A DNA stretch of 63,998 bases, the filler included, from Collodictyon triciliatum (taxonomy: Eukaryota), in the NCBI GenBank assembly GCA_043381765.1. It is 5 parts of 5 records of this genome, joined end to end, with 100 filler letters (N's around TTAATTAATTAA, not from the genome) between each part and the next. Parts side by side here need not be neighbours in the genome. Positions count along the whole stretch, not along the records: positions 27,321 to 40,877 come from JBHJMP010001966.1; 4 more parts are not named here. The stretch is one strand, 5' to 3'. Every line of letters begins with the position of its first letter. The stretch's first letter is position 1. This document shows, in pieces, positions 13,560 to 57,141 of this stretch. The notes under the pieces were generated by a model. It did not search any database, was not told where the DNA came from, and saw only the letters and a program-made list of their open reading frames with translations. Position numbers and translations under genes: made by a program.

Positions 13560-13659
13560 NNNNNNNNNNNNNNNNNNNNNNNNNNNNNNNNNNNNNNNNN
13601 NNNTTAATTAATTAANNNNNNNNNNNNNNNNNNNNNNNNNNNNNNNNNNNNNNNNNNNN
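13560..13659. other. Artificial contig linker N44-TTAATTAATTAA-N44
   Basis: A 100-nt spacer with stops in all six frames, recurring four times in the window. Confidence 0.95.
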
Positions 13660-21453: not shown

Positions 21454-24400
21454 ATGACCCCGAATTTAAAAAAGTTTTGCTGCTTAATTTTGTCTTCTAG
21501 GTACGCTGGTATTTATCATGCATAAATATTGATTGTTTGCATATACAGGATCAAAATGGCTATATTAGCCCACAGTAATTATTTATACGGCTACGGACAT
21601 GAACATCTCTTTCGAACTTTTGATGGTCACGATGGCAGTGTTGAAGTGTTTCTGCCACATCAGACGGATGAAGGGTTGTGTCGGGAAGTGATGACAGTGC
21701 CATCAGAATTTGGAATATAATTGATGTAAGTCTGCTTTTAAAACAAGAAGGACATCCTGGTCATGTTAATAGCGCATCAGTCACGTCAGATAGATCAAGG
21801 TCATATCTGTGAGTAATGACAAAACCATCAAAATTTGGGATATATCGAGAGTATTAGAGATAAATACATTGATGGATGATACACTGCTTTTCTGTGTTCA
21901 TGCGTCCTATGATGGGTCAAAGAATGTCTCTGGTGGAGATAAGTTCCACGTGAAAATTTGGAATCTCTATGATGGTTGCCGCCTTGGAGTATTGATAAGT
22001 CATAAGGGTTTGATTAATAGCATTTCTACGAGTCCAGATAGATTGACGGTTGTGTCTGGAAGTTCTGACTCTAAAATCAGGATTTGGGATTTTCTCATAG
22101 AAATCTAACTTTGGAATTAGAGGGACATTATAGACGGGTTATTCTGTTTTTGTAACGTCTGATAGTTCAAAATTTTTATCTGGGGGCGATGATTACGCAA
22201 TAAAAGTTTGGAATATTTACGATGGAAATTTAATACCTGAGTTATGTGGCCATTATAGTAAAATTTTTAGTGTAGTTGCCACTTCGGACACAAGATTATC
22301 TCCGGGGTTGAAGATAACTCCATAAAACTTTGGCAGGTTTGTCCGTCTGGATTTTTTTTATCATATCGGCTCAGAAATATGTATAGAATGTGATGCGGAA
22401 ACTTACGGTGACCTGGATGCTTTATCCTGCAATCTATTCACTGAATGGACATATAACCCATCAACAGGCGCAATCAATATTGATTAGTATATTCCATGTG
22501 GGCCTGGTACATACAATTATATTAATGGTACAAAAAGTTAAGTCTTGTCTTCTCTGAAAAATTGGAACATAAGACTCTGTTTATGGTGAGAATTCTTGCA
22601 TGGATTGTCCAGAGGGAATTTACAATTCTGTGACGGGATCTAAAACTAATGATAGCTATGGTACATCTCCTATAGGTACATACAACCATAAAAAAGGTTC
22701 TCCATGTCCTGAATTATGTATTTCATGCATTTCTGGTACATACAACCCTACGCAGGGTACACTAGTATTAATTTCTGCATTTTATGTGAATCTAGAACAT
22801 GCAATGCCGCAAATGGCTCCACAACCACCGATTCCTGTATAGGATGTGAACCTGGAACGTATAGCCATTTAAGAGGCTCTGTTGATTGTATTATCTGTTC
22901 AGCTGGTATATACAATCCATATACCGGCTCAAACAGTATTGATTCGTGTATCCCTTGAAATATTGGAACCTACAATAACATGACTGGGCAAAGCCATTGT
23001 AGCTTGTGTGAACCTGGCACATATAGTCCGACTTATGGTCAATCTTTTTGAATTCCTAGCGCACACGTATCATACAATTCAATAAAGGGATCAAAAATAA
23101 TATATGCTTCTCTTCCATGCGCATCTGGAACATATACTCTTAACATGACATTGGCCAATATAAATGACTGTATTTTTTCCTCCATTTTATAAGTCCATAA
23201 ATAAACATGAATGCAAGTCATGTACCTCTTTATTTATATAAGATGGAAGCAGTGATATACATTTTGTGAAATAGCATTGGAAAGCCACGACATATGATAG
23301 TAAACATATTGCTTACAAGCCCAAATTAATATGCGTGTATAGGAGAAAAATACGTGCGCTAATGGGTATATGGGGCCTTTGTGTAGTGTCTGAAAATCAG
23401 GATTTTTAAATCTGGCTATACATGTTACGAGTGCCCGTATAAGGGAGTCGATGAATCTTTCTGTTTTTAAGTTTATCATCCCCTTGGCTTTTGTATTTAT
23501 TATGATAGAGGAAGCAAGACACCCTAAAACAGCAAAAGTTCAAATTTTGAAAACGTTGTGTTGTATCGTGTCCACACACTTTCAGATTCTATTATACTTT
23601 GCAAACTTTGATGTTGATTGGAGCTCCAAATTGATTTTATCTATGAATATACCGGCAATATTTTCATTTTCATTTTCAGTGGAAAACTATCCCGTCAGTT
23701 GTCAATACGGATTGAAAGATACGTCAATATTTTTATTCCATGGCATCTCCACTAATTTTGGTTGCTGTTATTATTGTTGTTATTTTACTCAAAACAACTT
23801 GGAGGCTGAAGAGTGATAAGGTTGGAAATGAAGACATAACCTTGTTTAAAATTGCCAAGGAATTTATCATTTCAATTATGGTATTATTGTTTTTTGTTCA
23901 CCCTTCAATTACATCTTCCATATCAAGTATACTTTCATGTGAAAAACTGGGTGATATAAGATCCTCAAAGGCTCATATATCTATTTTATGTGATGACCCT
24001 TATTATGTTCTGTGGGAAAATATGTCTGGTGTATATTATACTCTATTGCTTTGGCGGACCACTTTCACATTGTGGATACATGTTTTACAACGTATCCTCG
24101 TTGATAAATCCTACATCCAACACATATAATCTACTTGGGTTTCTGGTGGATGGATAAAAAGAAAAGAGCTTCTATTGGGAAGTTGTTATCATGATGCAAA
24201 AGCTACTTGTGGTTATAATCAAATTTACATTCTCCGCGGCATTATATATATATATATATATATATATTGGGCCATGGCTGCTGTTATTTGTTTTTATTTT
24301 ATCTATATTTTTGAAGCCATTTATGTCGAACGTTATTAGGAAATCTCAACTCTGCTCCTTATCTATTATCTATTTTACTTTGATGACCAGTTTTCTATTT

Positions 24401-25169: not shown

Positions 25170-26740
25170 AGTTTTTGTGTTTTGGGTGGAAGAAGAAAAG
25201 AAAAAAAAGGAGAAAAATATGAAGTGTTCTACATATAGACCATTCTACTCAAGGTGATTCAGCCCCAAAGCGGTTTCTGGTTGTATGCGAGACTGACAGA
25301 GGAGCGGATAAAGTTGTCGGGTCGATGAAAGTACGCACATGGCAGTTACTTCTCAAATCGATTCCGACGAGTCCTTTCAGCCGCCTATCTCAGACAAGAT
25401 TTACGTCCTATTTCATTCCACAGGATGAGTCTTTTGAGGAGACAACGGGTCACTTTCCTTGCGTTTCTTGCTAGGCGACTGAGACAAAAAGCGATACATC
25501 GTTGTTTGTCTGGTATTATCTGAAGTGGCGCTTGACTTTCTCCTGGCATCGGACCATGCGTAGTCAGCAGTGGACTTTGCTTAACCAGAGTATGAATACG
25601 CGTTTGTGGTTTTAGAAACATACGCTCCTGCTTTCTCAGACTGCCTTTAGTGTATGAAGTTCCAAGCTTGGATTCGACTTGTGGTGTTTGCTCTTGCTCC
25701 TTGGTTCTCGGTGCGACGGGCTGGGACAGGGTAAACGGACTATCTTTGGTGGGCGCTGGTTCTTGTGTTGCCTTCGCTTTGGAATATCCTTTAGGATATG
25801 TAACAATGGCTGTCTTGATACTCAAGTAAATGAGGCACGTCAGTCTGAATGGGTAGTTTAAGGGGGGATTTCTTTCGGGGTTTGGAGATGCGCTGCTCTT
25901 GGGTCATGCGATGTGCGGGCTTGTCCGATGTTGGTGGTGGAGGGCTCGAGTGCGAGGATTCTGAAGAGGAACCGAGATTTCCTTCCATGTCATCGCCGTT
26001 GTCGCTGTATGCGCGTATCTGCTGTGAGTCTTGCGGGCTCAGTTGTTGCCTGGCCTTGGCTTCCTTGACCCCGTTGCTGCTTGTCTGCTAAGTGTATGTA
26101 TTCTTTTGTGGAGCTTTTACTTGTCGTTTGTTGTTTGCAGCTGGCGGACACTCTTTGGGGATGTGCTTTGGACACTTTTTACCCATGACCGTAAACTTTG
26201 CAGGGAGCTGGTTCTTGTGGCAAAGAAGCTTCACCACGGCCGTGTCTGTGAAGAAGCCTTTGTCCTTTTTTGATGTATCCACGTGGGTCGGTCTGAACGG
26301 CTTCAGCTCCTCATGAAGGAGTTGCGGCCATACTTACAGCGGTAGTTGGTAGAGCATCACCGAGGTCTCTGTTGGTTTACTTCTCTGCTGAAGCTGATCG
26401 TAATATCGCTCAGACTTACCTGTTTCAGCTCCATGAGCTTTCCGGTGTTTTCTGCAGTGCGGAAGGCAATCAGGCAAAGGCCTTCGCTGTCCGGTAAGCC
26501 CAGTTGGATGGACTCTTCCCAAAGTTTGTTCGCATTCAAGAAGGAGGCGAGCGCATCAGTGAGCCTGCGGGCCTTGTTCTTGTTTTAAACGACTTGCTCG
26601 ACCCCGTGCAAAAATACTTTCGATCGGACAGACTTGCAGGCGGTTTCCTTGCACACGTCTTCGTGGATTTACGTTCAACTCAGTTTTTCCGCACCAGCGT
26701 TGGAATCAGAAGAACTTTCTCTACTCTCTAATCCAACCCT
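25170..26740 (-). mobile_element. Decayed LINE-like retrotransposon, copy B (near-complete frameshifted ORF1)
   Basis: Overlapping broken ORFs NANKLWEESIQLGLPDSEGLCLIAFRT..VMLYQLPL..DKGFFTDTAVVKLLCHKNQLPAKFTVMGKKC..PKGYSKAKAT, with high nucleotide similarity to 29040-30355. Confidence 0.7.
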
Positions 26741-27220: not shown

Positions 27221-27320
27221 NNNNNNNNNNNNNNNNNNNNNNNNNNNNNNNNNNNNNNNNNNNNTTAATTAATTAANNNNNNNNNNNNNNNNNNNNNNNN
27301 NNNNNNNNNNNNNNNNNNNN
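27221..27320. other. Artificial contig linker
   Basis: N44-TTAATTAATTAA-N44. Confidence 0.95.
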
Positions 27321-29039: not shown

Positions 29040-30355
29040 ATGAAAAAGGAGAGAAAGTATTCTTATACACGGACTATTCTACTCGAGGTGATTCAGCTCC
29101 AACGCGGTTTCTGGTTGTGTTCGAGACTGACAGAAGAGCGGATAAAGTTGTCGGGTCGATGAAAGTACGCACATAGCAGTTACTTCTCAAATCGATTCCG
29201 ACGAGTCCTTTCAACCATCTATCTCAGACAAGATTTACATCCTATTTCATTCCACAGGATGAGTTTTTTGAGGAGACAACGGGTCACTTTCCTTGCGTTT
29301 CTTGCTGGGATATTCAGACAAAAAGCGATACATCGTTGTTTGTCTGGTATTATCGGAAGTGGTGCTTGGCCGTCTCATGGTTTTGAGACCATGCGTAGCC
29401 GGCAGTGGACTTTGCTTGACCGGAGAATGAATATGCGTTTGTGGTTTTAGAAGCATACGCTCCTGCTTGCTCGGGCTGTCTTTGGTGTGTGAAGTTCCAA
29501 GCTTGGATTCGACTTGTGCTGTTTGCTCTTGCTTCCTTGGTTCTTGGTGCGACAGGCTGGGGTAGGATAAACGGACTATCTTTGGTGGGCGCTGGTTCTT
29601 GTGTTGCCTTCGCTTTGGGGTATCCTTTCGGATAAGTAACGAAGACTGCCTTGATGCCTTCTATGTTAACCATATTCACGTCAGTCTGAATGGGTAGTTT
29701 AAGGGGGATTTCTTTCGGGGTTTGGAGATGCGCTGCTCTTGGGTCTTGCGATGTGCGGGCTTGTCCGGTGTTGGCGGTGGATGGCTCGAGTGCGAGGATT
29801 CTGAAGAGGAACCGAGATTTCCTTCCATGTCATCGCCGCTGTCGCTGTATGCGCGTATCTGCTGTGAGTCTTGTGGGCTCAGTTGTTGCCTGGCCTTGGC
29901 TTCCTTGACCCCGTTGCTGCTTGTCTGCTTGGCAGGTGTATTCTTTTGCGGGGCTTTTACTTGTCGTTCGTTGTTCGCGGCTGTCGGGTGCTCTTTGAGG
30001 ACGCTTTGGACACTTTTTGCCCATGACCGTAAACTTTACAGGGAGCTGGTTCTTATGACAAAGAAGCTTCACTACGGCCGTGTCTGTAAAGAAGCCTTTG
30101 TCCCTTTTGATATCCACATGGGTCGGTCTGAACGGCTTCAGCTCCTCGCGAAGGAGTTGCGGCCACACGTCCAGCGGTAGTTGGTAGATCATCACCGAGG
30201 TCTCTGTTGGTTTACATCTGCTGAAACTGGTCGTAATGTCGCTCAAACTTACCTGCCTCAGCTCCAGAAGCTTTCGGGCGTTTTCTGCGGTGCGGAAGGC
30301 AATCAGCCAAAGGCCTTCGCTGTCTGTTAAGCGCAATTGGATGGGCTCCTCCATC
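29040..30355 (-). mobile_element. Decayed LINE-like retrotransposon, copy C (ORF1)
   Basis: EEPIQLRLTDSEGLWLIAFRTAE..VMIYQLPLDVWPQLLREELKPF..TDTAVVKL..SKKRKESDPLSPQKTHPVE*; homologous to copies A and B. Confidence 0.7.
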
Positions 30356-30400
30356 GCTATGACATATAATTTCACAATACGCAGGCGACGCCCTTTCTTA

Positions 30401-30531
30401 AAAAAGACAAAGACAAAGACAAAGACAAAGACAAAGACAAAGACAAAGACAAAGACAAAGACAAAGACAAAGACAAAGACAAAGACAAAGACAAAGACAA
30501 AGACAAAGACAAAGACAAAGACAAAGAAAAA

Positions 30532-30594
<63 letters not shown>
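30401..30594. repeat. (AAAGAC)n followed by (AAAT)n microsatellites
   Basis: Read directly. Confidence 0.95.
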
Positions 30595-30595
<1 letters not shown>

Positions 30596-30776
30596 ATTTT
30601 CAATATTTACATATTTCTCGTCATTTTTTTATTTTTAGTGGCGCATCTTTCTGGGGAGAAAGCACTTCAGTCTGCTTAGAAAAACCCTCAAGGATTCCCA
30701 AATCTAAAATAAATGTTTTTTTTTTTAACACAGAATGCATTTCTACCAAATATTTAGACAAGTAACCTTACTTTCG

Positions 30777-33700
30777 TTAAGGTTTAATTCTCTTCCTCCA
30801 CTCAGATGCGTGGTTAGTGTCCCTCTCAGCACCCCAACCATTTTCATAGCATTCAGCGACGATACAAACTGCTTGTGGATATTTGTACTTTTCTCCAATT
30901 TTTTGTCCCCATTTATTCAATTCATCCTCCTTTATTTCAGTCATTTCTTTCAAAACACTGAATGCCTCCTTTGAACCTTGCTGTGCAATTTGCATCAAAC
31001 CGTCGAAATCTAGTATAGACTTTAAGGGAATAATTATCCCCCAGTAATGTGCTTTCTTTCTATCACTCTCAACACCCCATCCATTTTCATAGCAATCAGC
31101 CATCAGTTTTGCTTGAAATTTTGTGAACTGACCTTGTTCACAATATGAAGCAAAGTCCAAATCAAAAGAAGCAGCACCAATTGAAAGTAGGAGGTATTTG
31201 TTGAATTGACTCAACCCAATGACATTTCTGATTTGAATATTTCCTCCTTCCAACTTTCTAGGGCCCTTGATATGGACAGTCCTCATATCTTGGGTAGCTT
31301 TCGTGTCATTAAGGCTCGTACCACCCGTATCTCTGCCCAACACTGCGACGTTTTCTTCAGCTATCATATTCTTGATGAAGTACTTCCCTTGGATGTATCT
31401 CAATTCTGGTTTACGCAAACTGTGTATTTGATTTCGCGTGGCCACATTCCAAATTCGTATAATATTATCATCACTTCCAGAAGCCAACCAGTTTTCACCA
31501 TTCGGTCCTTGAACACAGCAAACACTGGTGATAGAATCTTCATGTCCTTTCAGTATTTCGACTTGATTATTTGTGACTAAATCCCAAAAACGAATTGTTT
31601 TATCTTCACTTCCGGAGGCCAACCAGTTTTCACCATTCGGTCCCTGAATACGACAAAGGCTATTGACTCCTCTTGTATGTCCTTTCAATGAATCGATTAT
31701 GTTTCCTGTAGCCATATCCCAAATACATATAGTTTTATCTTCGCTTCCGGAAGCTAGCCAGTTTTCACCTTTTGGCCCTTGAATACTGCAAACACTTTTT
31801 ACCGTGCTTTTATGAACTTTCCATGTTTGGATTTGATTTCCTGTGGCTACATCCCAAATGCGAATAGTATTATCTTGACTTCCAGAAGCCAGCCAATATT
31901 CACCATTCGGTCCTTGAATGCTGCAAACGCTGGCAATATAGTTTGTATGACCATCTAATGTTTTAATTTGATTCCCAGAATCGATATCCCAAATACGTAT
32001 TGTTTCATCACGACCTCCAGAAGCCAACCAATTTTCACCATTTGGTCCTTGAATGCTGCAAACACAAAAGATAATATCTGTATGACCCACTAGTTTTTTA
32101 ATTTGGTTTCCTGTGACTACATCCCAAATACCCAATGTTTTATCTTGACATCCAGATACCAGCCACCTCTCACCGTTTGGCCTTTGGACATTGCAAACAC
32201 TCATTATAGGTCCGACGTGGTCTACTAATTTTTTTGTCAGAGTCCCAGAGGCTAAGTTCCAAACATGAACAGTTTTATCATGACTTCCAGAAGCCAACCA
32301 GGTTTCACCATTCGGTCCTTGTATACTGCAAACACTATTGATATAGCCCAGATGGCCCTCTAGTTTACCATGAACCAATCCCAATTTCACATTATTCATA
32401 TTTGTATTATCAAAAACACAACCACCAAGCATCGAGTCAGTAAAATCAACCCCACTCAAGTTGGCACCAGTGAAGTTTGCACCATCAAGAATTGAATTAC
32501 TGAGATTCGCGTGAGGAATTTGGATGTTTGATAAATCCATTCCGTCAAACGAAACATTCATGAAATTCAAAAGTGTGATAGCATCAGATGCAGCCTTTGA
32601 TTTGCTCTCATCATTTTTTGACATGTAGACAATTCTGAATAATGATGAAATTATTTGATCACGATTCCACTCTCTATCCAGTAGAACATCATCAAGAGTT
32701 TCACTGATGAATTCCTTGACTCTTGTAAACTCAACAGGCTCCTTAATACTTCCGATCTCCTTTGAGTGGAGAGTTAAGTATTCGCACGAGTTTAATGTTC
32801 TCTCGTGAACCCATCCGAGTTTTCCAGCAAATCTGTCTCTCATCTCAGTCCAGAATGTAAGGGCACTTTCATGCAGCTTGTTCTCTTTGCAGTACTGGTG
32901 CACACTCTCACAAGCCACCCAGCAGTCCCAGTTTTGATAGGATGACTTTTCACCATGTCTAACTGCAGCCGTCTTGTAAACTTGAATCACAGCCTCATCT
33001 TTCTTCGCTTCTCTTAATAATCGAACGAGTTTGTCAATCTGTTGCATATCATACAGTAGCATAGCGGTTTTTGTTTCCTTCCTGGTGGCAGCTGTCCTCT
33101 CAAAGTGCTCAACAACTTGGTCCAATCTTAATTCGTAAAAGCTAATCAATAACAAATCACCGATATTTTCTAAAGATTTTTCTTTCTAAAAATTGAAATA
33201 TATAAATTTTACCTTTTTAGCTCAAAGTTTGTTTTCCCGATATACTCTGCAAAGCCTGACCTCTCAATATCTGAATCTTCGAAATATTTCATATCAGCAT
33301 CGAAATGTTCAACGTGCTTTTTGTAATGAAGCAGGAATGTATTTGAAAGCTTTGTACTGTGATGTGCCCAGCCAAGTTTGTTCGTAAATTTGTCTCTTAC
33401 AGCAACCCAAAATGCCATGCCTTCATTATACAACTTGTATTTGGTGAAGTATGTGTGGGCATTTTCACAAGACGCCCAACAATACCAATTATCATAGGAT
33501 GATTTTTCACCGTACCTAACGAAGGCAGTTTTGTAGAGTTGGATATTTACTTCATGTTCATTCATTTTTGTTGTGTAATTCATGATTTTGTCTATTTGAT
33601 CTGTGTTATCTAGTGACATAATGGTATTTGTTTGCTTTCGGATGAGAGCAGCTAAATGTAAGTACTCGATGACTTGGTCGAACCTGAATGCATAAAAATG

Positions 33701-36700
33701 AATTAACAAAGGGTTGACTCTCTTTGAATCGAATAAAGGAGAAAAAAAAAACAAAGGGTTGACTCTATTTTTTTTTAATTGTCATTATGATAAAATTATT
33801 AGGCATTTAAATTCTTAATATGAACCTTTTCAATTCAAAGTTTATTCTTCCAACATTCTCGAGAGATGTTGCGTAATCGACATGCTTTTCACCCAGTGTC
33901 CTTTTGCGAATATCCATAGTCTTTGTATAGGCATCCAAGGCATACTTGAAACTAAAGATACCAAGCAAATATTTATATCGAACAAAGGAAAATGATATAG
34001 TGAGGATTATTTTCTCTTAAATTACAAAAGAATTTTTTTTAATGGAATCATTAATATTTATTATGAACTACTCTTTCATATTATGGCTGACATCTCCTAT
34101 CATTTCATAGCACGCTACAACTTTCGGATGATTTTCTCCAAAATTAGATAATAAAATGTCCAGTGATTGTTTGAATGATGATAAAGCCTCGTGTTTCCTA
34201 TGACATTAGATGATTGAATAGACAAAAACATATCCAATATTATTGCATAATGCTTTTACGTATCCTTTCTAACCTATCACTAGCAAAGTAAACATTTGCG
34301 ATAAACTGCATAGTTGATGCAATAGATGCGTGCTTAGGACCCATCGACTTTTCTAGGATTGATTGTGCTCGGTGGTACATCTCGATAGAATTCCTATACC
34401 TAAAGTACCCTACTTATTAGCTATCCCAATATATTCCTTGGATTTTACAAAAGAAAAAATGGTGAAAATATGGGAGACCTGTGCTCACTTTTTCTCAGCC
34501 AAAAGTACATGCCCATAGTTTTGATACGATGTTGAGACAAGAGGGTGCTCCTTTCCCAATTTCTTTTGGCGAATTTCCATAGACTTTTTGTATTTGATCA
34601 TAGCCTGGTCGATTCTGAGATAAATTTATATCAGAAATGATTACTTTTTCATAAAAATGGAGAGGGTCAGAATAGACAAATTAAAATACGCTCAAGAGTT
34701 ACTTTGACTGTTTCACATAGATATCTCCGAAGCGGTCATACGATTGCGCGACTTGCAAATCGTTTTCGCCCAGCTGTTTAATTCTCAAGTCTAATGATTG
34801 TGTATATTCATCGAGAGCATCTTCAATTCTAAATAAAAAAAAAAGACAGTATTTTAGTTGAGGATTATAAGGTTACAAAAGGGTGAGCACTCACCTATCC
34901 TGTTGCTGGTAAATATACCCTATTTCCTCATGGATTGTGGCGACACTCAATAAACAATTTTCAATTTTCTCAATAGAGTTGAGGCATTTTTTGTAATGAA
35001 CCATGGATTCAGTCCAGCTGTTTTTTTTTTTTTTATCATATTAGTAAATTTAATCCGGATATTTTAGACAAAGGTGCATTTTTGTCTCCATTACGATAAT
35101 TATATATATATTTTTTTTACTTTTGAAGATTCTTGTAGACACGGCCAAGGTTCAGGTAATCAGCAACTTTGGATTCTATATATTGGTTTGCATTTAATTG
35201 AAAAATTCAATTATTTAATCCTTTATTCTGTTCTATGTACTTGCTTTTTTATTTTGTCGGATTACAGAACCATTAAACTACCTTCTGTTTGATATCTCCC
35301 GAGACGCATGTTAAGAACAGAGAGCAAGAATGAGTTCTCAAACGACTCCAGGAAAAATTCGACGAGTAAGTTCCCCACGTTATCGAGGGACTGAAAAAAA
35401 ATTCATTAGATCAAAGAAGTCAATTATTTGATTTTGAACCAAGAAACATTTTCCTATGAGTGATATTTATGTACATTAACTAGAGTCTTGTAAACTTCCT
35501 TGTAGTTTGCCACTCCACTCTCGTGGATTGCCCTCCAGCATGAAAAGAATTCATAGCGATATCGCCCACCGAGCATGATACTGATGACCTGTGAATATAT
35601 TTCTGTCAATAAAAATCTTAAAGTGGAATTAATCATTTATTGAGTAAAACTGTTATTATGATAGAAAAATCTTTACATGATTCTGCTTCATATATTCTAC
35701 GAGCAATTCAAATGAATTTCCTTTTAAAAGTTGATAGCATATTTCGGCAGCGAGTTCCTCATCCACCTCAACGATCTCCAGATATTGACCAAAGAGCCAT
35801 TTCCCGTAATTATGATGAGATTTTATAACATCATGGCTTTCAGAGAAGTAGACCCTTTCAGTCGTCTCCAAAAGTAGATGATGGAAGAACATGTATCTAT
35901 TTTATTATTGTTAGGCTGATTAAATCATGTTATTACGATCTAAATAATTTAAGAATGATTTAAGTTATTGTAAAAATTCTTTTTAAAAAATGTAACCTTC
36001 CGTTGCGAACGAAAAGCGAATCAACGAGAGTAAAGAAGAAGGTTTTCCTGAGAAATATCACGTTCATATAATTATTAGAATCGCAGTATTCGATAAAAAA
36101 AAAAAAAAAAAAAAAAAAAAANNNNNNNNNNNNNNNNNNNNNNNNNNNNNNNNNNNNNNNNNNNNNNNNNNNNNNNNNNNNNNNNNNNNNNNNNNNNNNN
36201 NNNNNNNNNNNNNNAAAAAAAAAAAACGGGAATCATAAGAACGAAAAAAATTCATAATCTTCTCTCAAATTCGAGTCATAAATAGGAGTTGGTCACGGCT
36301 TACTAGCTAATTAAATATTATGATAATTATGAAATAAAAATACCATTCAGCAAGCTCGAATCCTGTGCCGATTGTGTCCTTCATGTACCTGTCCAAATCA
36401 CTTTCGCTCAGGCCGATACGGGAGACAAACAAAACTTTCATTGAATTCGAGACATAATCGAGATCTGATAATTAAAGTGTGACAAAATTAACAGATCGAC
36501 TTCAGAATTTCAATATAAGGATGTTTTTTTTTTTAAAAAAAAAAAAATTCACCTCCTCTGTCATATTTCTTGCGCCAGCGTTGAATAATCAAGGTATATA
36601 GCTCAACTACACCTTTTGTCGAGAGCAATGTCCCTAATTCGTCATCAAGTTTTTCATAAACTCCGAAAACCCTGATTTCATCCAGAATTATGCGAAGGTA

Positions 36701-39700
36701 GAGCGGGTGGCCTAAAATAAGTTTGTGAAATTCATACTATGAATTCATCCATGTCAGAACTTATTAAAAAAATATGCATTTACTAGAAAAAATAATGCTC
36801 CACCAGTGTCTTTCAGGTCATCAAGAATCATCCCAACTTGCTTTTCGTTTAGAGTCTTGTCGTAACGAGTAAGGAATGATTCGACACCATCTTCGACTTC
36901 AACCTCAGTCAACTTGGCGACAGGAATGGATTCCAAACCACTTTGCTCAGCAGACTTACCATAAATTAATGAATTTCGAATTCAATTATATAATTTAAAA
37001 AAACTTCAAATTTAAAAGTAAACTCCTCTTCTATCAGTTATTTTTAATTAGAACTTAAATGGTATGAATAAATGCCTTGAAAGCTTCATGCGTGTCAATG
37101 GTCGACACAACTATGGCAGTATTAAGTGGCGTTTCTTTGGGCAACCAGGTTAGCAGGTGAGGGGCTGGTGTTCCTTGCGACGGATGGATTTGGTTGATGG
37201 CGTCGATGAGGAAGACAAACTTCTCGTCTCTTAAAAAAACAATATTTAATGATAATAATGACTAACAGAAAAATTGCGAAACCACGAAATGATAAAAATA
37301 TTACTTATTCATCTCCTGAATCATTTTCAGTAAGCCTTGGAGCCCATCTTTTTCGTAATCTGGCGGCACCATAAAGTAAACATATACAATGATTTTTTTT
37401 TGTTATCGCTTTCACTTCGTGCAAGGTGGTGTACATAATGATATTTTATTTCAAATTAAAAATAAAAAATCGAATAAATTAAATAAGAATGTATTTACCG
37501 GTTTCTTGCTTGCTTCGCCCAAAAAAGCTGGCGGATTTTGTGACTAAAGTCCAGAAGCGAATCGAAATACTACATAAAAAATCTTTTGAATAAGAATGCA
37601 TTTAATAATAAAACCATTTTTAAATCAGAAATTGATAAAAGTAACCTTTCCACGTAGTTGCTGAGGTTGGTGCATCCGACAAAATGGAAAAAGACACTCA
37701 GTCCAGGATATTTCAGCCCTTCGAGGTTTCTCGCTGTAGCAGCGATGAGCGACGACTTTCCAATCCCAGACTCAGCAGCAAGAACGATGATTTTGGACTT
37801 GTCCATATTAAGCTGGTTCAAGGCCTGATAAAAAAGTATGAGATTTTATAAATTAAGAAAGCAACAAGAAATATATAAGAATTTAATTGATTTTTTTATC
37901 AGCTTACTTGCTCCGTGATTGTCTTGAGAAGCTCCTTTCTTCCGCCAAACCCAGCCAGTCGATGCATCTTGAACTGGTGCTGTGCTTGGTCTTCAGGATC
38001 TCTCACCTAGGTTATAGTTATGACAACAAATGTAAATGAAACATATAACACCAATCAATTTAGATATCTATAAAACCAATTAAATAAAAAAAATAATACA
38101 ATTTGATTCCCAAAGTCACGCTCGATGGCGTAGGTTAGATGGTATGTCACAAAGTCTGAATACTCCTTCGCTCCTTTGTAGATAACATGTCCGAACTTTG
38201 CCTTTACTTTTCCTTTAAGTTCCTCTTGCCTCATGCGCTAAAAAAACATAAACATAAACATAAACATAAACATAAACATAAACATAAACATAAACATAAA
38301 CATAAACATAAACATAAACATAAACATAAACATAAACATAAACATAAACATAAACATAAACATAAACATAAACATAAACATAAACATAAACATAAACATA
38401 AACATAAACATAAACAAAGAAATATCCAAAAAAATATACAGCCTCTTCGCTTTCATCTTGGAAAAGCTTTCTCTCTTCCTCGCTCTTGGCATGTTGGACA
38501 GCATAATGCTCATCACGGAGGTAAAAGAAGGCGCGGCTGCATGCTGGTTTGTCAATCAGACAGGCGTGTTGAATCTGAACATGTATTATCATCAATAATG
38601 ATTTTTCAATTACTTTCACTATTATTCATGAGAAAATACAGAATATAATGTAGAAATTCGCTTCACCTCGTATTCAGTCACACTCAGCCCAGGCATTTCG
38701 TTGATGAAAGGAAAGCGACTATTGGTTTCACTGCGCCATTCTACCCAAATATCCTTCATGGTAGCATCAGGCTTTGTTTTCAGCAGCTCCTGAAGGCGGG
38801 CTTGTTTGTTCAGCTCGGTTTTGCTTCGGTCAGGAATCCAGCCGTAGCGCGCACCGAGAGAGCACACAAAATATGGGCATTTTCCGATGGAGTCCAGACA
38901 ACGAATCACAACCTAATAAATAATGGAAAAGTGAGATTTATTATTCTATAAAAAGGAAAATATCATAAAATTATCGAATATATCATGTTAATAATATTGT
39001 GATTACCCATCCCTCACTACTGTCTTCAGAGGTTAATCCCCAGCGCAAATCGATAAAGACAAGGTCCACTCCCAATGATTTCGCAAGCCTTTTCAATCTG
39101 TGATGAAGATAATAATATTGTTCATGATATAAATAGAGGTATCATATCACATAATAACATAAATTAAGAAAATAAATAGGTCAATTCACTCAGGGGCTCC
39201 GTTCTTGAAAAACTCGTCTCTTTCACGCTGCATATCACGGAAAGTGGAGGAAAGGAAAACACGGATGACACGCTCGTCAAATACGATAAGCGGCAATGGT
39301 GTCGAGGTCACGTATCTTTGTGGAGCCGGATTCCATTTCTTGTATTGCCTCTCCTTCAGGTCTTCACGAGCGAGCTTCATCTGATTTGGAAATGCGTTTA
39401 TAAAAAAAACTGAACAAATTAGTTTATTTTCAATCTTTTGTTTTAAGCGATTTCTTACCTTGTCAAGAAGAATGCAAGTGCGGATGAGCACGACAGAGCC
39501 TTTTTCTTCCAGACCAAGGCCTGCATCAATATTTAAATTTCAAAAATCAATTTATGGACATGATTTAGCATTATTCTATTCATAATAAATAAAAAATAAA
39601 AGGTTTTCTAACCATGAAATGGAAACGGGGCCTTCGCTCTTTCGTAGAGTTTCCTGGCAATATCAAACCTCTCGCGACATTTTTTCTAAAATGTGAATTA

Positions 39701-40467
39701 TTTAGGTTTTAATTTTAAGGGTTGCCATGAAGTTTAAAAAATCATTTAAAAATTATGTTTAGAAGAAATCATTACTCCAAGGCTTCCCAAATGACCAACA
39801 CTTTGTCCAATAAGATACTGGAGGATGGCATTGAGCGAATCTAAAAGAGTTATTAATTTTCACCCATCCATACAAAATAAAAGATCAATAAACAAAATTA
39901 TTCAATGACAACCCTCTTAATAAAATGTTGAAATAATAGTAAGGCAAACCAGCGTAATGGGCCTGAGAAGCAACAGCATCATAATGGATATTTAGTTTCA
40001 GAAACCAATCAACGATGAGTTTTTGATTCTCGTCAACGAGGATCTCTTCTCCAATAGGTTTGTCACTGAAAAAAATGGAAAAGAATGAACAGGAAAAAAG
40101 AAAGAACAAATATTAAAATATGTGTATAAAATGATCGGAAAAATGGAAGTGATGAAAAGATCATTGAAATCATACGCAAACAAGCGTGAATGATAGTTTC
40201 CCAAGGACTTTCCGGTAACCGTCTCAATCAGCATGGCCAAAAAGAACCCGTCCATAAAATCATCCCGGATGTTCTTCGCCTTGAGCTCGATTTTTCCCAG
40301 GTAGTGGTTCGCCCATTCGAGGACAGCCTGTACTCAGTTGCCATATTAATTTATCAATCCTCTTCAATATATAAATATTAATGAATGACAATGTGTATAC
40401 GTGGGCGTACTTCATCAATCGTGACAAGGCTAACGTTGGCCTCGGGGCTTGTTTCGGTTGCAGACAT
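30777..40467 (-). CDS. NLR-like STAND NTPase: CH - DUF4062 - P-loop NTPase - TPR repeats - pentapeptide repeats - 7x WD40 - SEL1-like
   Basis: ATG at 40467. CH-like AVLEWANHYLGK..DDFMDGFFLAMLIETVTGK; DUF4062 VIRVFLSSTFRDMQRERD..FIDLRWG..CPYFVCSLGARYGW..SVTEYE; Walker A AESGIGKSSL; Walker B FVFLIDAINQI; HPLYLRIILDE; GLSESDL; TPR exons 33826-35018; NLSNSILDGANFTGANLSGVDF; WD40 repeats; ADCYENGWG twice. Contains an N-gap in an intron. Confidence 0.85.
31430..32365 (-). repeat. Seven 132-bp (44-aa) WD40-coding repeats
   Basis: Consensus GHxxxIxSVCSIQGPNGENWLASGSxDxTIRIWDxxTGNQI; the repeat is visible at nucleotide level. Confidence 0.9.
36122..36214. other. Scaffold gap (plain Ns) inside an intron
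   Basis: Ns between poly-A runs with no TTAATTAATTAA linker; the coding frame appears to continue across it. Confidence 0.85.
38246..38416. repeat. (TAAACA)n microsatellite in an intron
   Basis: Read directly. Confidence 0.95.
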
Positions 40468-40877: not shown

Positions 40878-40977
40878 NNNNNNNNNNNNNNNNNNNNNNN
40901 NNNNNNNNNNNNNNNNNNNNNTTAATTAATTAANNNNNNNNNNNNNNNNNNNNNNNNNNNNNNNNNNNNNNNNNNNN
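40878..40977. other. Artificial contig linker
   Basis: N44-TTAATTAATTAA-N44. Confidence 0.95.
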
Positions 40978-47200: not shown

Positions 47201-50200
47201 TTGATTATCTTTTTTTTAAAAAAAAATTATTTTTGTCATAGGAACTGTTCCAAACTTCAGTGGAATTCCACACGTTACAGAAATTATATTGTCAAGCAAC
47301 GAACTTGATGGTAAGAAAAATTGAGATAAAATAAACAAATGCTAATATTTTATGATAGGGACAGTCCCAAACTTCAGCGGAGTCCCGAATCTTGAGGGTA
47401 TTTACATAACTAACAATCAGCTGACAGGTAATAATTTTTTCAATTAAAATTGAAAAATTGATTGATGGCTAATGTCTCTTTGCAGGAACAGTTCCAAACT
47501 TCAGTGGAATCCAAAACATCAAAGAAATAAATCTTTCATCGAACAAATTGAGCGGTTTGTTTTTTTCTAAATAAACTATTATTAAAAAATATTCTGCTAA
47601 AATGAGACGTTTTCAGGAACAATTCCAGATTTCAGCAACGTTTCTAGTATCGAGATTTTGGATCTTGTTGATAATGAATTAAACGGTGAAATATACTAAA
47701 AGAAATTTTAAAAGAAAGAAAAGTTAAAATTTAGATTAGTTCCTTAATATCACGCTTAATCATTAGGTCAAATTCCTACATTTAATAATTGCTTACAATT
47801 AAAAAGAATCTTGTTGTTCAGAAACTGTCTCAATGACTCCCTTCCTTCATTCAATTTGCCGTTATTGAAGATGTTCGATGTCAGTGAAAATTTCTTGACA
47901 GGTACTATACCCAACAGCTGGAGTTCTCTATCAATAGAGGAACTAGACCTCTCAAATAACAGGATGAATGGAACTATTCCAAGCGTTTTTGAAAAATTTG
48001 AAAAGTTGGAATCTTTGACCTTGTCTAATAATCAATTTCATGGAACTATGCCTAATATGTTTTGGAATCTCCCTAATCTCATCTCCGTAGACTTGAGAAA
48101 TAACTCATTTTCAGGGGAAGTAAGTTATTTCATATCACCTGACAATGTGAATTCGAATTATGTGTACAATTACGAAACGCTGATTCTAGATGACAATCAA
48201 CTCTACGGGGAACTGGGCGTTAATGTTTTCGATTATGTAACAAATGTGAGGACCATAAGCATAAAGAACAATATGATATCGAAATTAGGTGATATAACTT
48301 TTTTATCCAGATGGACTTCACTAGACTTGTCTGGGAATCCAATATTTGGTAGCATATCTGAATCCTATTATCTATTCATCAAACTCGAGTATTTAGGCTT
48401 GAAAAATACGAGTATGAATCATGGCTCTTCGGATTTTATTCCCTCCTTTATGGATATCACCGAGTCCTACAGTTTAGAAAAGACGACAGACAAATATTCA
48501 TGTCCGTTGATTGTCTCGCGTTTAGGGTTGATAGAAACGGAAGTGGATATTGACCCAAATTACCATGACTTTGGTATGTGCAAATGCTTGCCGGGATACT
48601 TTGGATTCGGAAACCGATGTATCAAGTGCCCAAGAGAATGTGATTGCAATGACGGCGTTTCCTTGGAAAAGTGCTACTTCACGCCAGAGCTTGTTAAGAT
48701 AGCCCAAATAGTTCCATGCATGAATCCAAACGTGTGCAAATTTTATATTCCAGAATACATGCCTAAAAGAATGCTCATTAGCAATGATACATATGATTTC
48801 CCGTGTGAGAAGGGGTACACAGGGAGAAGTTGCTCTTCATGTGAGGATGGATACTTATTTGATAGCGGTGAATGCAGAGAATGCTCATCAGATTACTCTG
48901 CAATCAAAGTTATTGTGTTTCTTCTTCTGCTGTTTTTCGGAGTTGTCTATCAGGTTGGATTTGCTTGGGTAGGTGAGAGCGTAGATGACATCGAGGAGAA
49001 ATATTGCACCAGAGGCGGACCCGAGGACCAAATTGATTCAGGTAAGATAACTGTCGATGTATTCAAATTAATAATAATTTTACTATTCATTCTTGTATTC
49101 AATTTTTTTTTGTATCAGCATCGTTGGACATTTTCCTGTTTTACACACAAATCCTACAAGTTCTTGGCGATATTGTATATTTGCCGGAGATAAACCTTGC
49201 TGGAAAATTCGTCGGCAATTTGTTTTCATTAAAATTGCCAACCCTGGAGTGCATCGTTGGGAATCGCCCCCACATCACATCGCTATTGAATTTGGCTCGG
49301 ATCCCCACCATCCTTTTCATAGCTTTATTGGGATTGAAAAAATTTATCGCAAAAAGGGACAGGAAAAACGTCGAAAAGGTTTGTGAATTCGGTATATATA
49401 AATACATGTATTACAACATCGAAACTGACTTTGATAACGAACAGGTTGTCGGAGTCATGTTTATTTTCCTGGAAGGGACATATTTCTCGGTGGTGCAAGA
49501 TGTAGTGAGCACTTTTGGATGCACCATATATGATAAAGGGTTTGATTTGTGGTTTGTCAACACCTATCCATGGATACAATGCAACCCTATGACTGGCGAA
49601 TATGCAAAAATGATATCTGCTGCAATACCAGGCTTGCTGTATATGATTTTGTATCCGAGTTTCTTGTGGTTTATAGTAAAAAGAGCGAGGAGGCTTAAAA
49701 AAATTCAGCGTAAAAGTAAACAAGAAGACCTGGAGAAAACTGATTTGGTTTGATTAAATACGAGAAAATCAAAAAAACTGTAAAAATTTTAATCTATTCT
49801 ATCACACAGGTTACAAGTGACCCAAAACAGGAGTGCGAAATACATATTGAAATCAAGAGTATTGAACCTAGTAAATACACCTATGAAACGAACATTGACG
49901 GTGTTGAAGTAAAAAATTTCGACAATGATTCCAGCATTCCATCGGCTGTTCAGAGCAATTTAGATGATGAAAAGCGGAGTGATGCGAACAGACAAACTGG
50001 AGAAAATGATAATATCGAGATGAGTCAATCAACTTTTGAAATCATTTGCCAGGTTCAAGTGGATCGAATATCTGCTATCTACGAAGAGGTAAGGAGAATG
50101 ATAAATGTGTAAATGATTTTTATTTTGCAGCATCAGTTTCAATACTAACATAAATGAATGCGAAGAAATATGACTGGTGGGTGGTTATCAGAGTATTTCA

Positions 50201-54525: not shown

Positions 54526-54625
54526 NNNNNNNNNNNNNNNNNNNNNNNNNNNNNNNNNNNNNNNNNNNNTTAATTAATTAANNNNNNNNNNNNNNNNNNN
54601 NNNNNNNNNNNNNNNNNNNNNNNNN
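54526..54625. other. Artificial contig linker
   Basis: N44-TTAATTAATTAA-N44. Confidence 0.95.
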
Positions 54626-54644: not shown

Positions 54645-57141
54645 CACCGATCGATACAACTTCGGTGTTTGGCAAGATCTTTTGGGAATCCCTTTGGACC
54701 GGAGGGTCAGCGAAAGGCGAAGGTGTTGTCGGATAGATAGAATCGATAGAAGGACGCGATGTGTTATCCGGAGGTGTACTTTGAGTATTTCTGCTAGCCT
54801 CAGCTCGGTTCGAAAAAATCTCAAGTGACGGGACATTTCCGTGAGTGACTCCAGGAGATGTAGCTTTCTCCCAGGGTCTTGAGGTGATGGCGGTATGTGC
54901 ATCTTCTACAGGACCTTCCACTTCATCATCAAGTAATCCCTCGTCGGTTAATCCGAGTGAATTAACAACAGGAGCAAGCGCTTTCATCTTGGGATGTGAC
55001 TCTTCTTTTATGGGGGTTCGCTCCACTATGATATTACCAAATAAAAAAAATTAAGAAAAAGAATTACCCTTATTCTGAATGAACCAAGCACAAAATGTGA
55101 TTATGAAAAATCATTTGAGAATAAATAAGTCAATTATTTTATTTCGTTTCATTTCATTTTTTGAATTCAAAGATTGCTCAGCATTTAGTAAATCGTGCTT
55201 CAACAAACCTTCACCACTTAAGGCATAAGATGATCCAAAATCCGTTTCAGGTGTAGCTTTTACATTTCTTCCTGAGGCTATATAACCATATGTAGCGAGA
55301 GATGCTTTTGCGGCTGGGGTGGGCACCAAATTTTCATAGGAATCAGGAGATTGGTCGTGCACTTGCTTGGTTGGAGTATATGGTTCCGTTTTGTGAGGCG
55401 TATTACGTTCTGGATTCCCAAGTAAATTGGGCTTTGGACTTTCTTCTATATTGTGTATCGGGTTTCCTTGTATATTGGGTGTCGGATTTCCTTGCGTGTT
55501 TGGTGTCGGATTTCCAAATGAATTATGTGTCGGATTTCCTTGCATGTTTGGTGTCGGATTTCTGAATGCATCGGGTGTCGGATTTCCAAATGAATTATGT
55601 GTCGGATTTTCTTGCGTGTTTGGTGTCGGATTTCTGAATGCATCGGGTGTCGGATTTCCAAATGGATTAGGCGTCGGATTTCCAAATGGATTAGGTGTCG
55701 GATTTCCTTGCGTGTTTGGTGTCGGATTTCCTTGCGTGTTTGGTGTCGGATTTCTGAATGCATCGGCTGTCGGATTTCCAAATGAATTATGTGTCGGATT
55801 TCCTTGTGTGTTTGGTGTCGGATTTCCAAATGGATTAGGCGTCGGATTTCCAAATGGATTAGGTGTCGGATTTCCTTGCGTGTTTGGTGTCGGATTTCCA
55901 AATGGATTAGGCGTCGGATTTCCAAATGGATTAGGCGTCGGATTTTCTTGCGTGTTTGGTGTCGGATTTCTGAATGCATCGGGTGTCGGATTTCCAAATG
56001 AATTATGTGTCGGATTTCCAAATGAATTATGTGTCGGATTTCCAAATGGATTAGGCGTCGGATTTGGATTAGGCGTCGGATTTCCAAATGGATTAGGCGT
56101 CGGATTTCCTTGTGTGTTAGTAACCGGTTTGGTGGGTAGATAGGCTCTTGAGGTCTCTTCGTAATTTAACCCTTGACTTCCTGTTGGCCTGCAGGTTTTG
56201 CTCAATCAAAAAATTGGATATGTTCACAGTATGAGTAAATGATAGTTGTAATATATATACTAAACATAATTTTCTTGGGGTATTTGTGTGGAACCGCTGA
56301 CGCTTATGGCAGTGATTCATGAAGAATGAGTAAAGTAGAAAGAAAAGAAAAGCCTGTAACGTGGCTGAGAGCGTGTTAAACTAAAGCATATGTCAGGCTG
56401 TAATGCAAGTATATCGGTATGTACCCTACCTAATATCTAATCGAGCCAGGATAAACGCATTATTAGTGAGCATAAAGAAAATAAAACAACAAAAATAAGT
56501 AAAAATGTCACAAGCGAGTTTCTACGATTCAGTATATGTAAAATTCAATAAAGTGTGTCATTTTGTGAGAAGAAATAGGTCGAGGACTAATACATGAGTT
56601 CTCTTTTCCTTTAATTTCAGCCTTTTGTTGGATCTTTCATCCTTCATTCGATTCAATGTCTGTCTCTTACTAGTTGATGGAGTCTCCGAAAACGAGGAAG
56701 CCGCTTTGTCGGGTGCGCTTTCGTGAACCGTGGAGTGTAAATATTCCGTGGTAGCGTTTTGAGCCAAAGGCAAACGCCTGGCTTGAAATCTCTGTATTGA
56801 ATATGGAGAAGCCTGGACTGTCTCCTCTGTTAGTGAAAGAAATTCACTCCCATTCAGCTGGTGTCGAGAGACCATGTTGGCAAAGGCATCAAATGTTAGA
56901 CTTCTTAGAATTTCCTCCAGTTTTGCAGGACTCAGCTCTGTCTCTTGCTTGATCTCTTCTTTCTCCATGGGTTGGGTGTGATTTTCCTGGTTTGCCAACA
57001 GAAAGAAAAGAAACATATATCAAATGTATTATTAATGTGCGTCGATTTACAAAAAAAAAAAAAAAACATCCTCCCAGGCGAATTATCCTTTGCTCTTTCC
57101 ATTCCTGTCTTCTTTGATTCGTTAAAAGTAGCCGTATTCAT
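54645..57141 (-). CDS. SAM-like domain protein with an octapeptide (GNPTPNPF-type) repeat region; 3' end lost at the contig break
   Basis: LSPAKLEEILRSLTFDAFANMVSRHQLNGSEFLSLTEE matches the SAM pattern. Phase-compatible GT-AG junctions can join it to the NPTP ORF (55111-56205) and to the exon ending ..VVSI|gtgagt near 54645. Confidence 0.6.
55455..56115 (-). repeat. 24-bp coding minisatellite (~27 units)
   Basis: Near-invariant gtcggattt core every 24 nt. Unit variants encode NPTPNPFG, NPTHNSFG, NPTPDAFR and NPTPNTQG. Confidence 0.95.

Follow-up and report, generated by a model that had tools for sequence, protein, structure and literature searches.

Positions 30777 to 40467 on the minus strand of a 63,998-nt stretch of the Collodictyon triciliatum genome assembly GCA_043381765.1 (the whole stretch, referred to here as the window) hold a gene whose 2150-residue product we read, with a probability of about 0.55, as an NLR-like STAND protein of the NIR(DUF4062)-NACHT class (human TEP1, NWD1/2, NPHP3, TTC41) that acts as a switch headed by an NAD-hydrolyzing enzyme (NADase). 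From the N-terminus, the protein comprises a calponin-homology (CH)-like domain, DUF4062, a NACHT-type NTPase, a helical domain, approximately six TPRs, a duplicated degenerate-TPR linker, pentapeptide repeats, seven WD40 repeats and two Sel1 repeats. The gene is thus an unusual variant within a class described in 2026, and not a new class.

Pfam families matched along the minus strand between 30777 and 40467 in the order CH, DUF4062, P-loop/NACHT, TPR_12, pentapeptide, WD40 and Sel1. The earlier note, made from the sequence alone, had named these seven motif classes in this order and on one strand, and all of them were recovered from the exon translations; its end points coincide exactly with the stop codon and the ATG of our 32-exon model. 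Pfam scores for the gene were obtained from single exon translations, one exon piece at a time, and those of the 5′ exons were weak because the domains are split over short exons. Full-length relatives (denoted here by P numbers) exceeded the Pfam cut-offs for CH (34.1 and 32.7 bits in the homologous regions of P0121 and P0128, respectively; cut-off 26), DUF4062 (42.9 bits), NACHT (27.4 bits), nSTAND1 (32.0 bits) and TPR_12 (126-136 bits in the colinear relatives).

In the accessible text of two preprints (bioRxiv 10.64898/2026.05.01.722283, 10.64898/2026.09.04.749371), DUF4062 is renamed NIR and described as a TIR-like NADase domain that acts as a NADase in bacterial antiphage systems. According to the same text, the NIR domain of human TEP1 is active as a NADase through E1008, on which activity depends, and through R908 and R976, which contribute; the NIR proteins of eukaryotes are mostly NLR-like and carry the domain N-terminally. 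In the gene, Pfam DUF4062 (PF13271) matched two exon pieces with 20.3 and 24.3 bits (the cut-off of 24.7 applies to the whole domain), and relatives approximately 50% identical to the gene scored 42.5-53 bits. A profile of five relatives matched the TEP1 TIR-like domain sequence (PDB 11gz_A) with E 2.8e-22. Three motifs of the family profile, STFRDM, GxRYG and SVTxYE, aligned to TEP1 R908, R976 and E1008, and the versions found in the gene are STFRDM (Arg223), GARYG (Arg291) and SVTEYE (Glu351, the last codon of exon 9). Numbering of the 11gz_A chain used an inferred offset of 893, which puts R908, R954, R976 and E1008 on R, R, R and E (four of four). A phmmer search with exon 9 alone against PDB sequences gave one chance match (E 1), and TEP1 was reached by the family profile only. 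By this alignment, the three NIR active-site residues are conserved in the gene, and NADase activity is predicted. The assay for nucleotide cleavage by DUF4062 that the earlier note proposed has been overtaken: in the accessible text of the preprints, NADase activity is already reported for the domain family, whose active-site residues are kept here.

Both nucleotide-binding motifs of the NTPase, Walker A and Walker B, are intact. The P-loop exon matched AAA_16, NPHP3_N, NACHT and nSTAND1 weakly (E 0.001-0.04), and exons taken alone remained below the cut-offs (13.6-15.7 bits); colinear relatives exceeded them, for NPHP3_N with 28.7-29.3 bits in addition to the NACHT and nSTAND1 scores given above. 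Together, the TEP1-domain profile match and the intact Walker motifs uphold the proposal that the gene is an NLR-like STAND of the DUF4062+NACHT (TEP1/NWD/NPHP3) type. The classical NACHT Walker B extension is DGxDE. In the gene, this extension (37190-37204) reads DAINQ, without the acidic pair. Among the relatives examined (P0128-P0276 range), the extension carried NQ in 95 of 153 and DQ in 21 of 153, and 25 of 153 had no motif by a simple pattern; on these sequences, DAINQ is a trait of the wider DUF4062-STAND group and not of this gene alone. With regard to C-terminal leucine-rich repeats (LRRs), no LRR family was found in any Pfam scan of the exons, so the gene resembles animal NOD-like receptors (NACHT-LRR) in logic only.

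Evidence that the domains belong to one gene is provided by P0128, a single transcript-derived open reading frame (ORF) of 2619 residues in EukProt record EP00002, labelled Diphylleia rotans. Its colinearity with the model extends from the CH domain through the first Sel1 repeat. Residues 18-1327 of the model aligned to it in one high-scoring segment pair (HSP) with 50.0% identity and 11 gap positions in 1315 columns, and residues 1623-2063 formed a second aligned stretch with 44% identity. P0128 carries in one chain CH-like, DUF4062, NACHT, TPR, linker, pentapeptide and WD40 parts (with more WD40 repeats than the model) and one Sel1-like repeat. A second relative, P0121, aligned to residues 21-996 of the model in one HSP (51.5% identity). 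The joint between TPR and WD40 was found independently in P0122 and P0001, and that between CH and NACHT in P0121. At the level of Trinity groups, TPR, linker, pentapeptide and WD40 parts were joined to a Sel1-like repeat within a single ORF in each of DN6756, DN3506 and DN4235, as were CH, DUF4062 and NACHT in each of DN6756 and DN9131. Chimeric assembly of paralogues into one Trinity ORF can occur, which weighs against this evidence; given three concordant transcript groups, that explanation is unlikely. The domains thus very probably belong to a single gene, as judged from its colinear relative, although no transcript of the gene itself was seen. The combination of TPR, pentapeptide, WD40 and Sel1 repeats in one gene, which the earlier note had pointed out, holds both in the Pfam scans of the exons and in the colinear P0128.

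Splicing could be followed in contigs from the one sequencing run listed (X1), which contains 0.06 of the sampled words and is not on record as RNA; the comparison covered 30700-38200. These contigs were mostly 90-99% identical to the window in this range and therefore come from paralogues or a close relative. Two contigs (90-95% identical) join across 37569-37646, which is exactly intron 13 (GT..AG, minus strand), and one contig joins across 38004-38098, exactly intron 11 (GT..AG, minus strand); a third joint was compatible with intron 12. Several observations count against the single-gene model. The spliced contigs, being 90-95% identical, represent paralogues or a relative, and intron 31 is still present in one exact contig (32904-33238, depth 3.3). 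Retention of this intron would, by computation, produce a stop at codon 1364, so that the protein would end at residue 1363, before the pentapeptide-WD40-Sel1 part. In addition, intron 16 depends on a GC donor. These points could be explained by merged genes, the first coding for a CH-NIR-NACHT-TPR protein that ends at the TAA after exon 31 and the second, a separate one, for the pentapeptide-WD40-Sel1 part, or by a decaying gene that became a pseudogene via intron 16, where GC at 37075 has to serve in place of GT; the gene was also seen in no run on record as RNA. We consider both variants very unlikely. P0128, P0122 and P0001 pass the equivalent junction in one ORF, exons 31 and 32 are in phase through a 71-nt GT-AG intron of the usual size, and exon 32 has no homologue-supported ATG context upstream. 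All 32 exons are open, with the identities to P0128 and P0121 and the low gap count given above, and the GC-AG choice restores the homologue spacing exactly. As to the single transcript that the earlier note wanted confirmed, a relative has one colinear ORF from CH to the first Sel1 repeat, and the spliced contigs are not from the gene itself.

The gene model was assembled by enumerating splice sites, reading the junction sequences and running tblastn with relatives. It has 32 exons with 6453 coding bases and 0 internal stops, a start codon at 40467-40465 and a stop codon at 30779-30777, both on the minus strand. The 31 introns are 66-296 nt long with compatible phases (30 GT-AG and 1 GC-AG). 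The window is eukaryotic in character, with a GC content of 29-47% and coding sequence split into short open pieces. Exon 1 is the sole in-phase ATG exon found, and no homologue supports it. The GC donor of intron 16 was adopted because it is the only way past an in-frame TAA: no GT lies between the conserved TIDTH and this TAA. With the GC donor, the TH-SGL spacing is eight residues, identical to that of P0128 and P0122. For the junction of exons 31 and 32, a 27-nt intron (acceptor 33187-33186) was rejected on size and frame, and the 71-nt GT-AG intron (acceptor 33143-33142) was kept. A run of 93 N (36122-36214) sits within intron 19 and looks like masking or gap filling, not biology. Long (GT)n/(AC)n microsatellites were observed at 38244-38416, in intron 10, and at approximately 30400-30540, just 3′ of the gene.

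The interpretation in the earlier note was partly borne out. At the N-terminus, sequence profiles indicate a CH-like domain, and exon 2 alone scored below the cut-off (19.8 bits with Pfam CH, PF00307, over profile positions 7-49 of 109 only). Residues 18-215 of the model aligned to residues 187-379 of P0128 with 36% identity (E 2e-32). A profile including exon 2, compared with PDB sequences, gave 48 matches at E ≤ 1. By name, 44 of them are CH-domain proteins; alpha-actinin-4 ranked first (E 1.6e-5), and CH1 domains from alpha-actinin, plectin, parvin and filamin are among the matches. For the CH region of P0128, AF2 gave an all-helical model (mean pLDDT 46.7, pTM 0.31), a confidence too low for comparison of folds. 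CH homology is supported by these comparisons of sequence. To our knowledge, a single CH domain is insufficient to infer actin binding, and such domains often do not bind actin. At the equivalent position, the paralogue P0124 has an RRM, and P0123 and P0126 have a coiled coil, which fits an N-terminal position that would hold a swappable module and does not imply a role as a decoy. A tblastn search of the window with P0128 residues 1-186 revealed no second, upstream CH-like exon; these residues form an additional N-terminal region of P0128 that is CH-like by eye.

The TPR array is encoded by exons of regular size, five of exactly 126 nt and one of 123 nt; each runs from phase 2 to phase 2 and contains one repeat. 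Four single-repeat exons scored 25.1-28.5 bits each with TPR_12, below the cut-off of 30.1 because one exon equals one repeat. Given one TPR per exon and symmetric phases (33826-35017), repeats could be gained, lost or skipped in frame. The exon that follows the array, exon 31, is 42-45% identical to the first approximately 150 residues of exon 32 (32754-33152), and both exon 31 and the last TPR exon end in ...NFELK followed by GT. As judged from this likeness, exon 31 is a diverged tandem duplicate of the tail of the last TPR exon, the intron and the start of exon 32. The linker is single in the three relatives that cover the region (P0128, P0122 and P0001). Skipping of exon 31 would, by computation, keep the frame and give a product of 1993 residues. 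The AF2 model of exon 31 (pLDDT 74.9) has six helices, and a Foldseek search with it gave no match at E ≤ 0.001; the best matches, to kinesin-light-chain TPR domains, were weak (E 0.08 or worse, TM 0.43-0.46). On the strength of this model, whose best Foldseek E was 0.08, exon 31 is read as a degenerate TPR extension and not as a new fold. The second linker copy, at the start of exon 32, matched no Pfam family, and protein atlas scores for the linker domain (≤0.82) gave no lead.

Downstream of the linker, the pentapeptide repeats (PF00805) scored 55.2 bits against a cut-off of 20.2 in three stretches, and the WD40 repeats (PF00400) matched in seven stretches with E 1.4e-57. Six of the seven WD40 units are exactly 45 residues long, and their pairwise identity averages 57% (range 44-71%). 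Sel1 (PF08238) passed marginally, with 31.0 bits against a cut-off of 30.7 in two stretches; one Sel1-type repeat is kept in P0128, P0122 and P0001. The unit of a conserved helix and pentapeptide repeats ahead of WD40 is also present in the bacterial NACHT-WD40 proteins P0006, P0042 and P0043. Bacterial NACHT-WD40 proteins align from residues 1463-1546 of the model onwards, including the helix and the pentapeptide repeats, with 29-39% identity. These alignments suggest that a complete NIR-NACHT-TPR protein gained a pentapeptide-WD40 unit behind it. Exon 31 would then have been made by a later internal tandem duplication.

Relatives were collected in several searches. The last exon retrieved P0001, a transcript-derived protein of 1219 residues that covers 89% of this exon, and the helical region of P0001 retrieved four more relatives. 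A profile search of 1.84 billion representatives returned full-length P0128 and matched 13150 proteins at E ≤ 0.001 and 3834 at E ≤ 1e-30. P0001, the four further relatives and P0128 are all Trinity ORFs of EP00002. Among the top 20 profile matches, which were looked up, nine of the first 10 came from EP00002, and the second 10 comprised metagenome or assembly records, one spirochete and one crinoid. Look-up of 15 family clusters within one transcriptome record gave 14 distinct Trinity gene groups. The earlier note had proposed a search for the same architecture in other taxa; its order from CH to Sel1 is matched by P0128 of EP00002.

Family members vary at both ends, with CH, RRM or a coiled coil at the N-terminus and TPR only, TPR plus WD40, or additionally MIB_HERC2 at the C-terminus. 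Among the 150 relatives listed, those longer than 1700 residues, P0128 aside (P0133, P0173, P0192, P0226, P0224 and P0228), all had DUF4062, NTPase and TPR without WD40 (six of six). In a scan of five other relatives longer than 1800 residues, one (P0128) had TPR plus WD40 and four had TPR only. Among the relatives whose sequences were examined, the combination of TPR, pentapeptide and WD40 is confined to the gene and three relatives, and CH is confined to the gene and two relatives (P0121 and P0128). Three further features were observed in family members: a MIB_HERC2-type C-terminus at residues ~1640-1849 of P0122 (PF06701, precomputed; seen by eye), an N-terminal RRM at residues 39-107 of P0124 (E 1.1e-14), and a tail of approximately 1200 residues (~1090-2314) in P0133 with no Pfam match at E 1e-4. 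Our literature search found no description of the architecture of the gene; supplementary tables of the preprints (e.g., Table S5, EukProt hits) may already list such proteins. In the accessible main texts of bioRxiv 10.64898/2026.05.01.722283 and 10.64898/2026.09.04.749371, the words calponin, pentapeptide, Sel1 and Diphylleia are absent.

Like human TEP1, NWD1, NWD2, NPHP3 and TTC41, as far as these are described in the accessible text, the gene encodes a NIR domain immediately ahead of a NACHT-type NTPase and a helical domain, with repeats after them. In that class, the repeats are TPR in NPHP3 and TTC41 and WD40 in TEP1 and NWD1/2, whereas the gene has both. Unlike the TEP1/NWD/NPHP3 class, it adds pentapeptide and Sel1 repeats, a CH-like domain before NIR and a duplicated linker exon, and it has no TROVE or vWA domain. 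Bacterial NIR-STAND defense proteins (PsAvs2, Vulcan, Vesta; Swarozyc), again as far as described there, share with it a NIR effector with a catalytic Glu and the logic of an NTPase with a repeat sensor, and a bacterial DUF4062-STAND-TPR protein, P0145 of Leadbettera azotonutricia, was among the next-best relatives. In contrast to these bacterial proteins, the gene is eukaryotic, intron-rich and much longer, with extra N-terminal and C-terminal modules and no phage context. Bacterial and fungal NACHT-(pentapeptide)-WD40 proteins (e.g., P0006 of Candidatus Magnetobacterium bavaricum and cyanobacterial NB-ARC/NACHT-WD40 proteins) share with the gene the helix AAxNAxTxLN, the pentapeptide repeats and the WD40 propeller; in them the unit directly follows NACHT, whereas in the gene it follows the TPR array and two linker copies and is itself followed by Sel1. 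The APAF-1 apoptosome, an analogy drawn in the accessible preprint text, is expected to work on the same principle, in which an effector or adaptor domain at the N-terminus is joined to a STAND NTPase and to WD40 repeats for autoinhibition and sensing, but it has NB-ARC instead of NACHT, CARD instead of NIR, and no TPR, pentapeptide, Sel1 or CH. Plant NLR-ID proteins resemble the gene in that an atypical extra domain, differing among paralogues, is carried by an NLR-type receptor; they differ in having another NTPase lineage and LRR repeats.

By analogy with APAF-1, bacterial NIR-STAND defense proteins and TEP1, the likely mechanism is as follows. The C-terminal TPR, pentapeptide, WD40 and Sel1 repeats would keep the protein off and bind a trigger; binding of the trigger would lead to nucleotide-dependent oligomerization of the NACHT module; and the N-terminal NIR domains, once clustered, would hydrolyze NAD+, with cell death, dormancy or signaling as the outcome. 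The CH-like domain ahead of NIR would be a swappable accessory that, most simply, positions or anchors the protein at a partner, whether cytoskeletal or other.

Some observations speak against the proposed NADase-headed switch. According to the accessible text of the preprints, human NWD1, NWD2 and NPHP3, three of the four human members, showed no NADase activity in the conditions used for the tests (bioRxiv 10.64898/2026.05.01.722283, 10.64898/2026.09.04.749371). Class members may thus be inactive despite their membership, and therefore conserved residues do not prove NADase activity. No result ties the gene to infection or cell death, and it is present as a single copy in the window, with no defense-type neighbors. 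The chief alternative is a housekeeping role without immune function: as a scaffold or regulator, like those proposed for NPHP3 (cilia) or NWD1, the protein would use NIR for protein contacts or regulated metabolism and CH as a tie to the flagellar or cytoskeletal apparatus. Besides the inactive human proteins, Pfam NPHP3_N and TPR_NPHP3 match the family, the CH-like domain resembles cytoskeletal CH1 domains, and the gene stands without a cluster of paralogues in the 64-kb window. We nevertheless hold this alternative to be somewhat unlikely: the catalytic Glu and both Arg are kept, at least 14 transcript groups with shuffled ends occur in one transcriptome, a pattern more usual for conflict genes than for conserved scaffolds, and bacterial NIR-STAND-TPR proteins are among the nearest relatives that do not belong to the family.

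A different role for the CH domain, which appears improbable to us, is that of an integrated bait, akin to the guard of actin or microtubules suggested in the earlier note, by which the receptor would monitor a pathogen factor aimed at CH-domain or cytoskeletal proteins, with RRM and other heads as baits for other effectors. The N-terminal module does vary among otherwise colinear paralogues (CH in P0121 and P0128, RRM in P0124, coiled coil in P0123 and P0126), and the CH region is closest to the CH1 domain of actin-binding proteins. However, the module sits upstream of the effector domain, a long way from the sensor repeats, the fold prediction for the P0128 CH region was uninformative at its mean pLDDT of 46.7, and single CH domains often lack actin binding. 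Even more doubtful is the extended version, in which a protist NLR-like family would carry interchangeable baits (CH, RRM, coiled coil) on a NADase head and the gene would be an integrated decoy that reports attack on cytoskeletal CH proteins via NAD+ depletion. If true, this would extend NLR-ID systems beyond plants, the composite sensor having been built by capture of a bacterial-type pentapeptide-WD40 unit.

Under the NADase-headed reading, the gene leaves the picture of the NIR-NLR class unchanged. NIR-headed NLR-like proteins were recognized only in 2026, and the NADase activity of TEP1 is the sole eukaryotic function reported in the accessible text. The gene and its few relatives illustrate the extent to which the class can be remodeled, with four kinds of repeats and an extra CH-type head. 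From the in-frame duplicated cassette of exon 31, isoforms could arise that contain either a single linker copy or two. With its catalytic residues intact and its many shuffled paralogues, all in a single-celled eukaryote, the family would be a tractable system for asking whether eukaryotic NIR-NLR proteins have a part in cell-autonomous defense or death beyond animals.

Features of the gene in the order of the protein (positions in the window)
Feature	Position	Strand	Basis
Exon 1, 19-residue leader with start codon	40411..40467	-	Donor GT 40410-40409, 83-nt intron, acceptor before 40327
Calponin-homology-like domain, exons 2-4, residues ~20-125	39776..40327	-	Pfam CH, likeness to P0128, profile
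NIR/DUF4062 TIR-like domain, exons 7-10, residues ~214-396	38440..39266	-	Pfam on two exon pieces; family profile against TEP1
Predicted NIR active-site codons	Arg223 39237-39239; Arg291 38847-38849; Glu351 38667-38669	-	Alignment to TEP1 domain
NACHT-type P-loop NTPase, exons 11-16	37076..38237	-	Motifs; relatives exceed Pfam cut-offs
Walker A AESGIGKS, Lys498	37756-37758	-	Motif reading
Walker B FVFLIDAINQ, Asp586	37202-37204	-	Motif reading
Intron 16, sole GC-AG intron	36955..37075	-	GC donor at 37075
Helical and winged-helix part of STAND module, exons 17-23	35282..36954	-	tblastn colinearity with P0121, P0122, P0001
TPR array, exons 24-30	33826..35175	-	Pfam TPR_12, exon periodicity
Exon 31, 157-codon cassette, phase 2 to phase 2	33213..33683	-	Internal duplicate
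Linker copy B, start of exon 32, residues 1364 to ~1543	32601..33141	-	Likeness to exon 31
Conserved helix (SKAASDAITLLNF), then pentapeptide repeats	32379..32600	-	PF00805, E 4.9e-15
Seven WD40 repeats, period 135 nt	31446..32378	-	PF00400
Two Sel1-type repeats (CYENGWG...), C-terminus	30780..31094	-	Pfam Sel1

Elsewhere in the 64-kb window, no second family member was found: 20 of the 50 HSPs of P0128 lay outside the gene, all of them WD40-only and at 21675-22307 on the plus strand. The WD40-like exons at this site match the WD40 repeats of P0128 and of the last exon weakly (25-53% identity) and belong to a separate WD40 gene, not to a family member. Repeated ORFs with the common stretch VTYPKGY(S/P)KAKATQEPAPTKDSPF were observed at 25385-25903, 29247-29829 and 29830-30606, all on the minus strand and one of them directly downstream of the stop of the gene; they are probably a dispersed repeat or the remnant of a mobile element. 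At 13560-13659, 27221-27320, 40878-40977 and 54526-54625, two runs of 44 N lie 12 bases apart, those inspected being within long poly(A)/poly(T); these paired runs look like masking or gap filling, not biology. Large open pieces at 47760-49753 (plus strand), in which LRR-like repeats, Cys-rich EGF-like motifs and hydrophobic stretches were seen by eye, may encode a receptor-like membrane protein. On the minus strand, a 364-codon open frame of GNPTPNPF/GNPTPNTQ repeats occupies 55111-56205.

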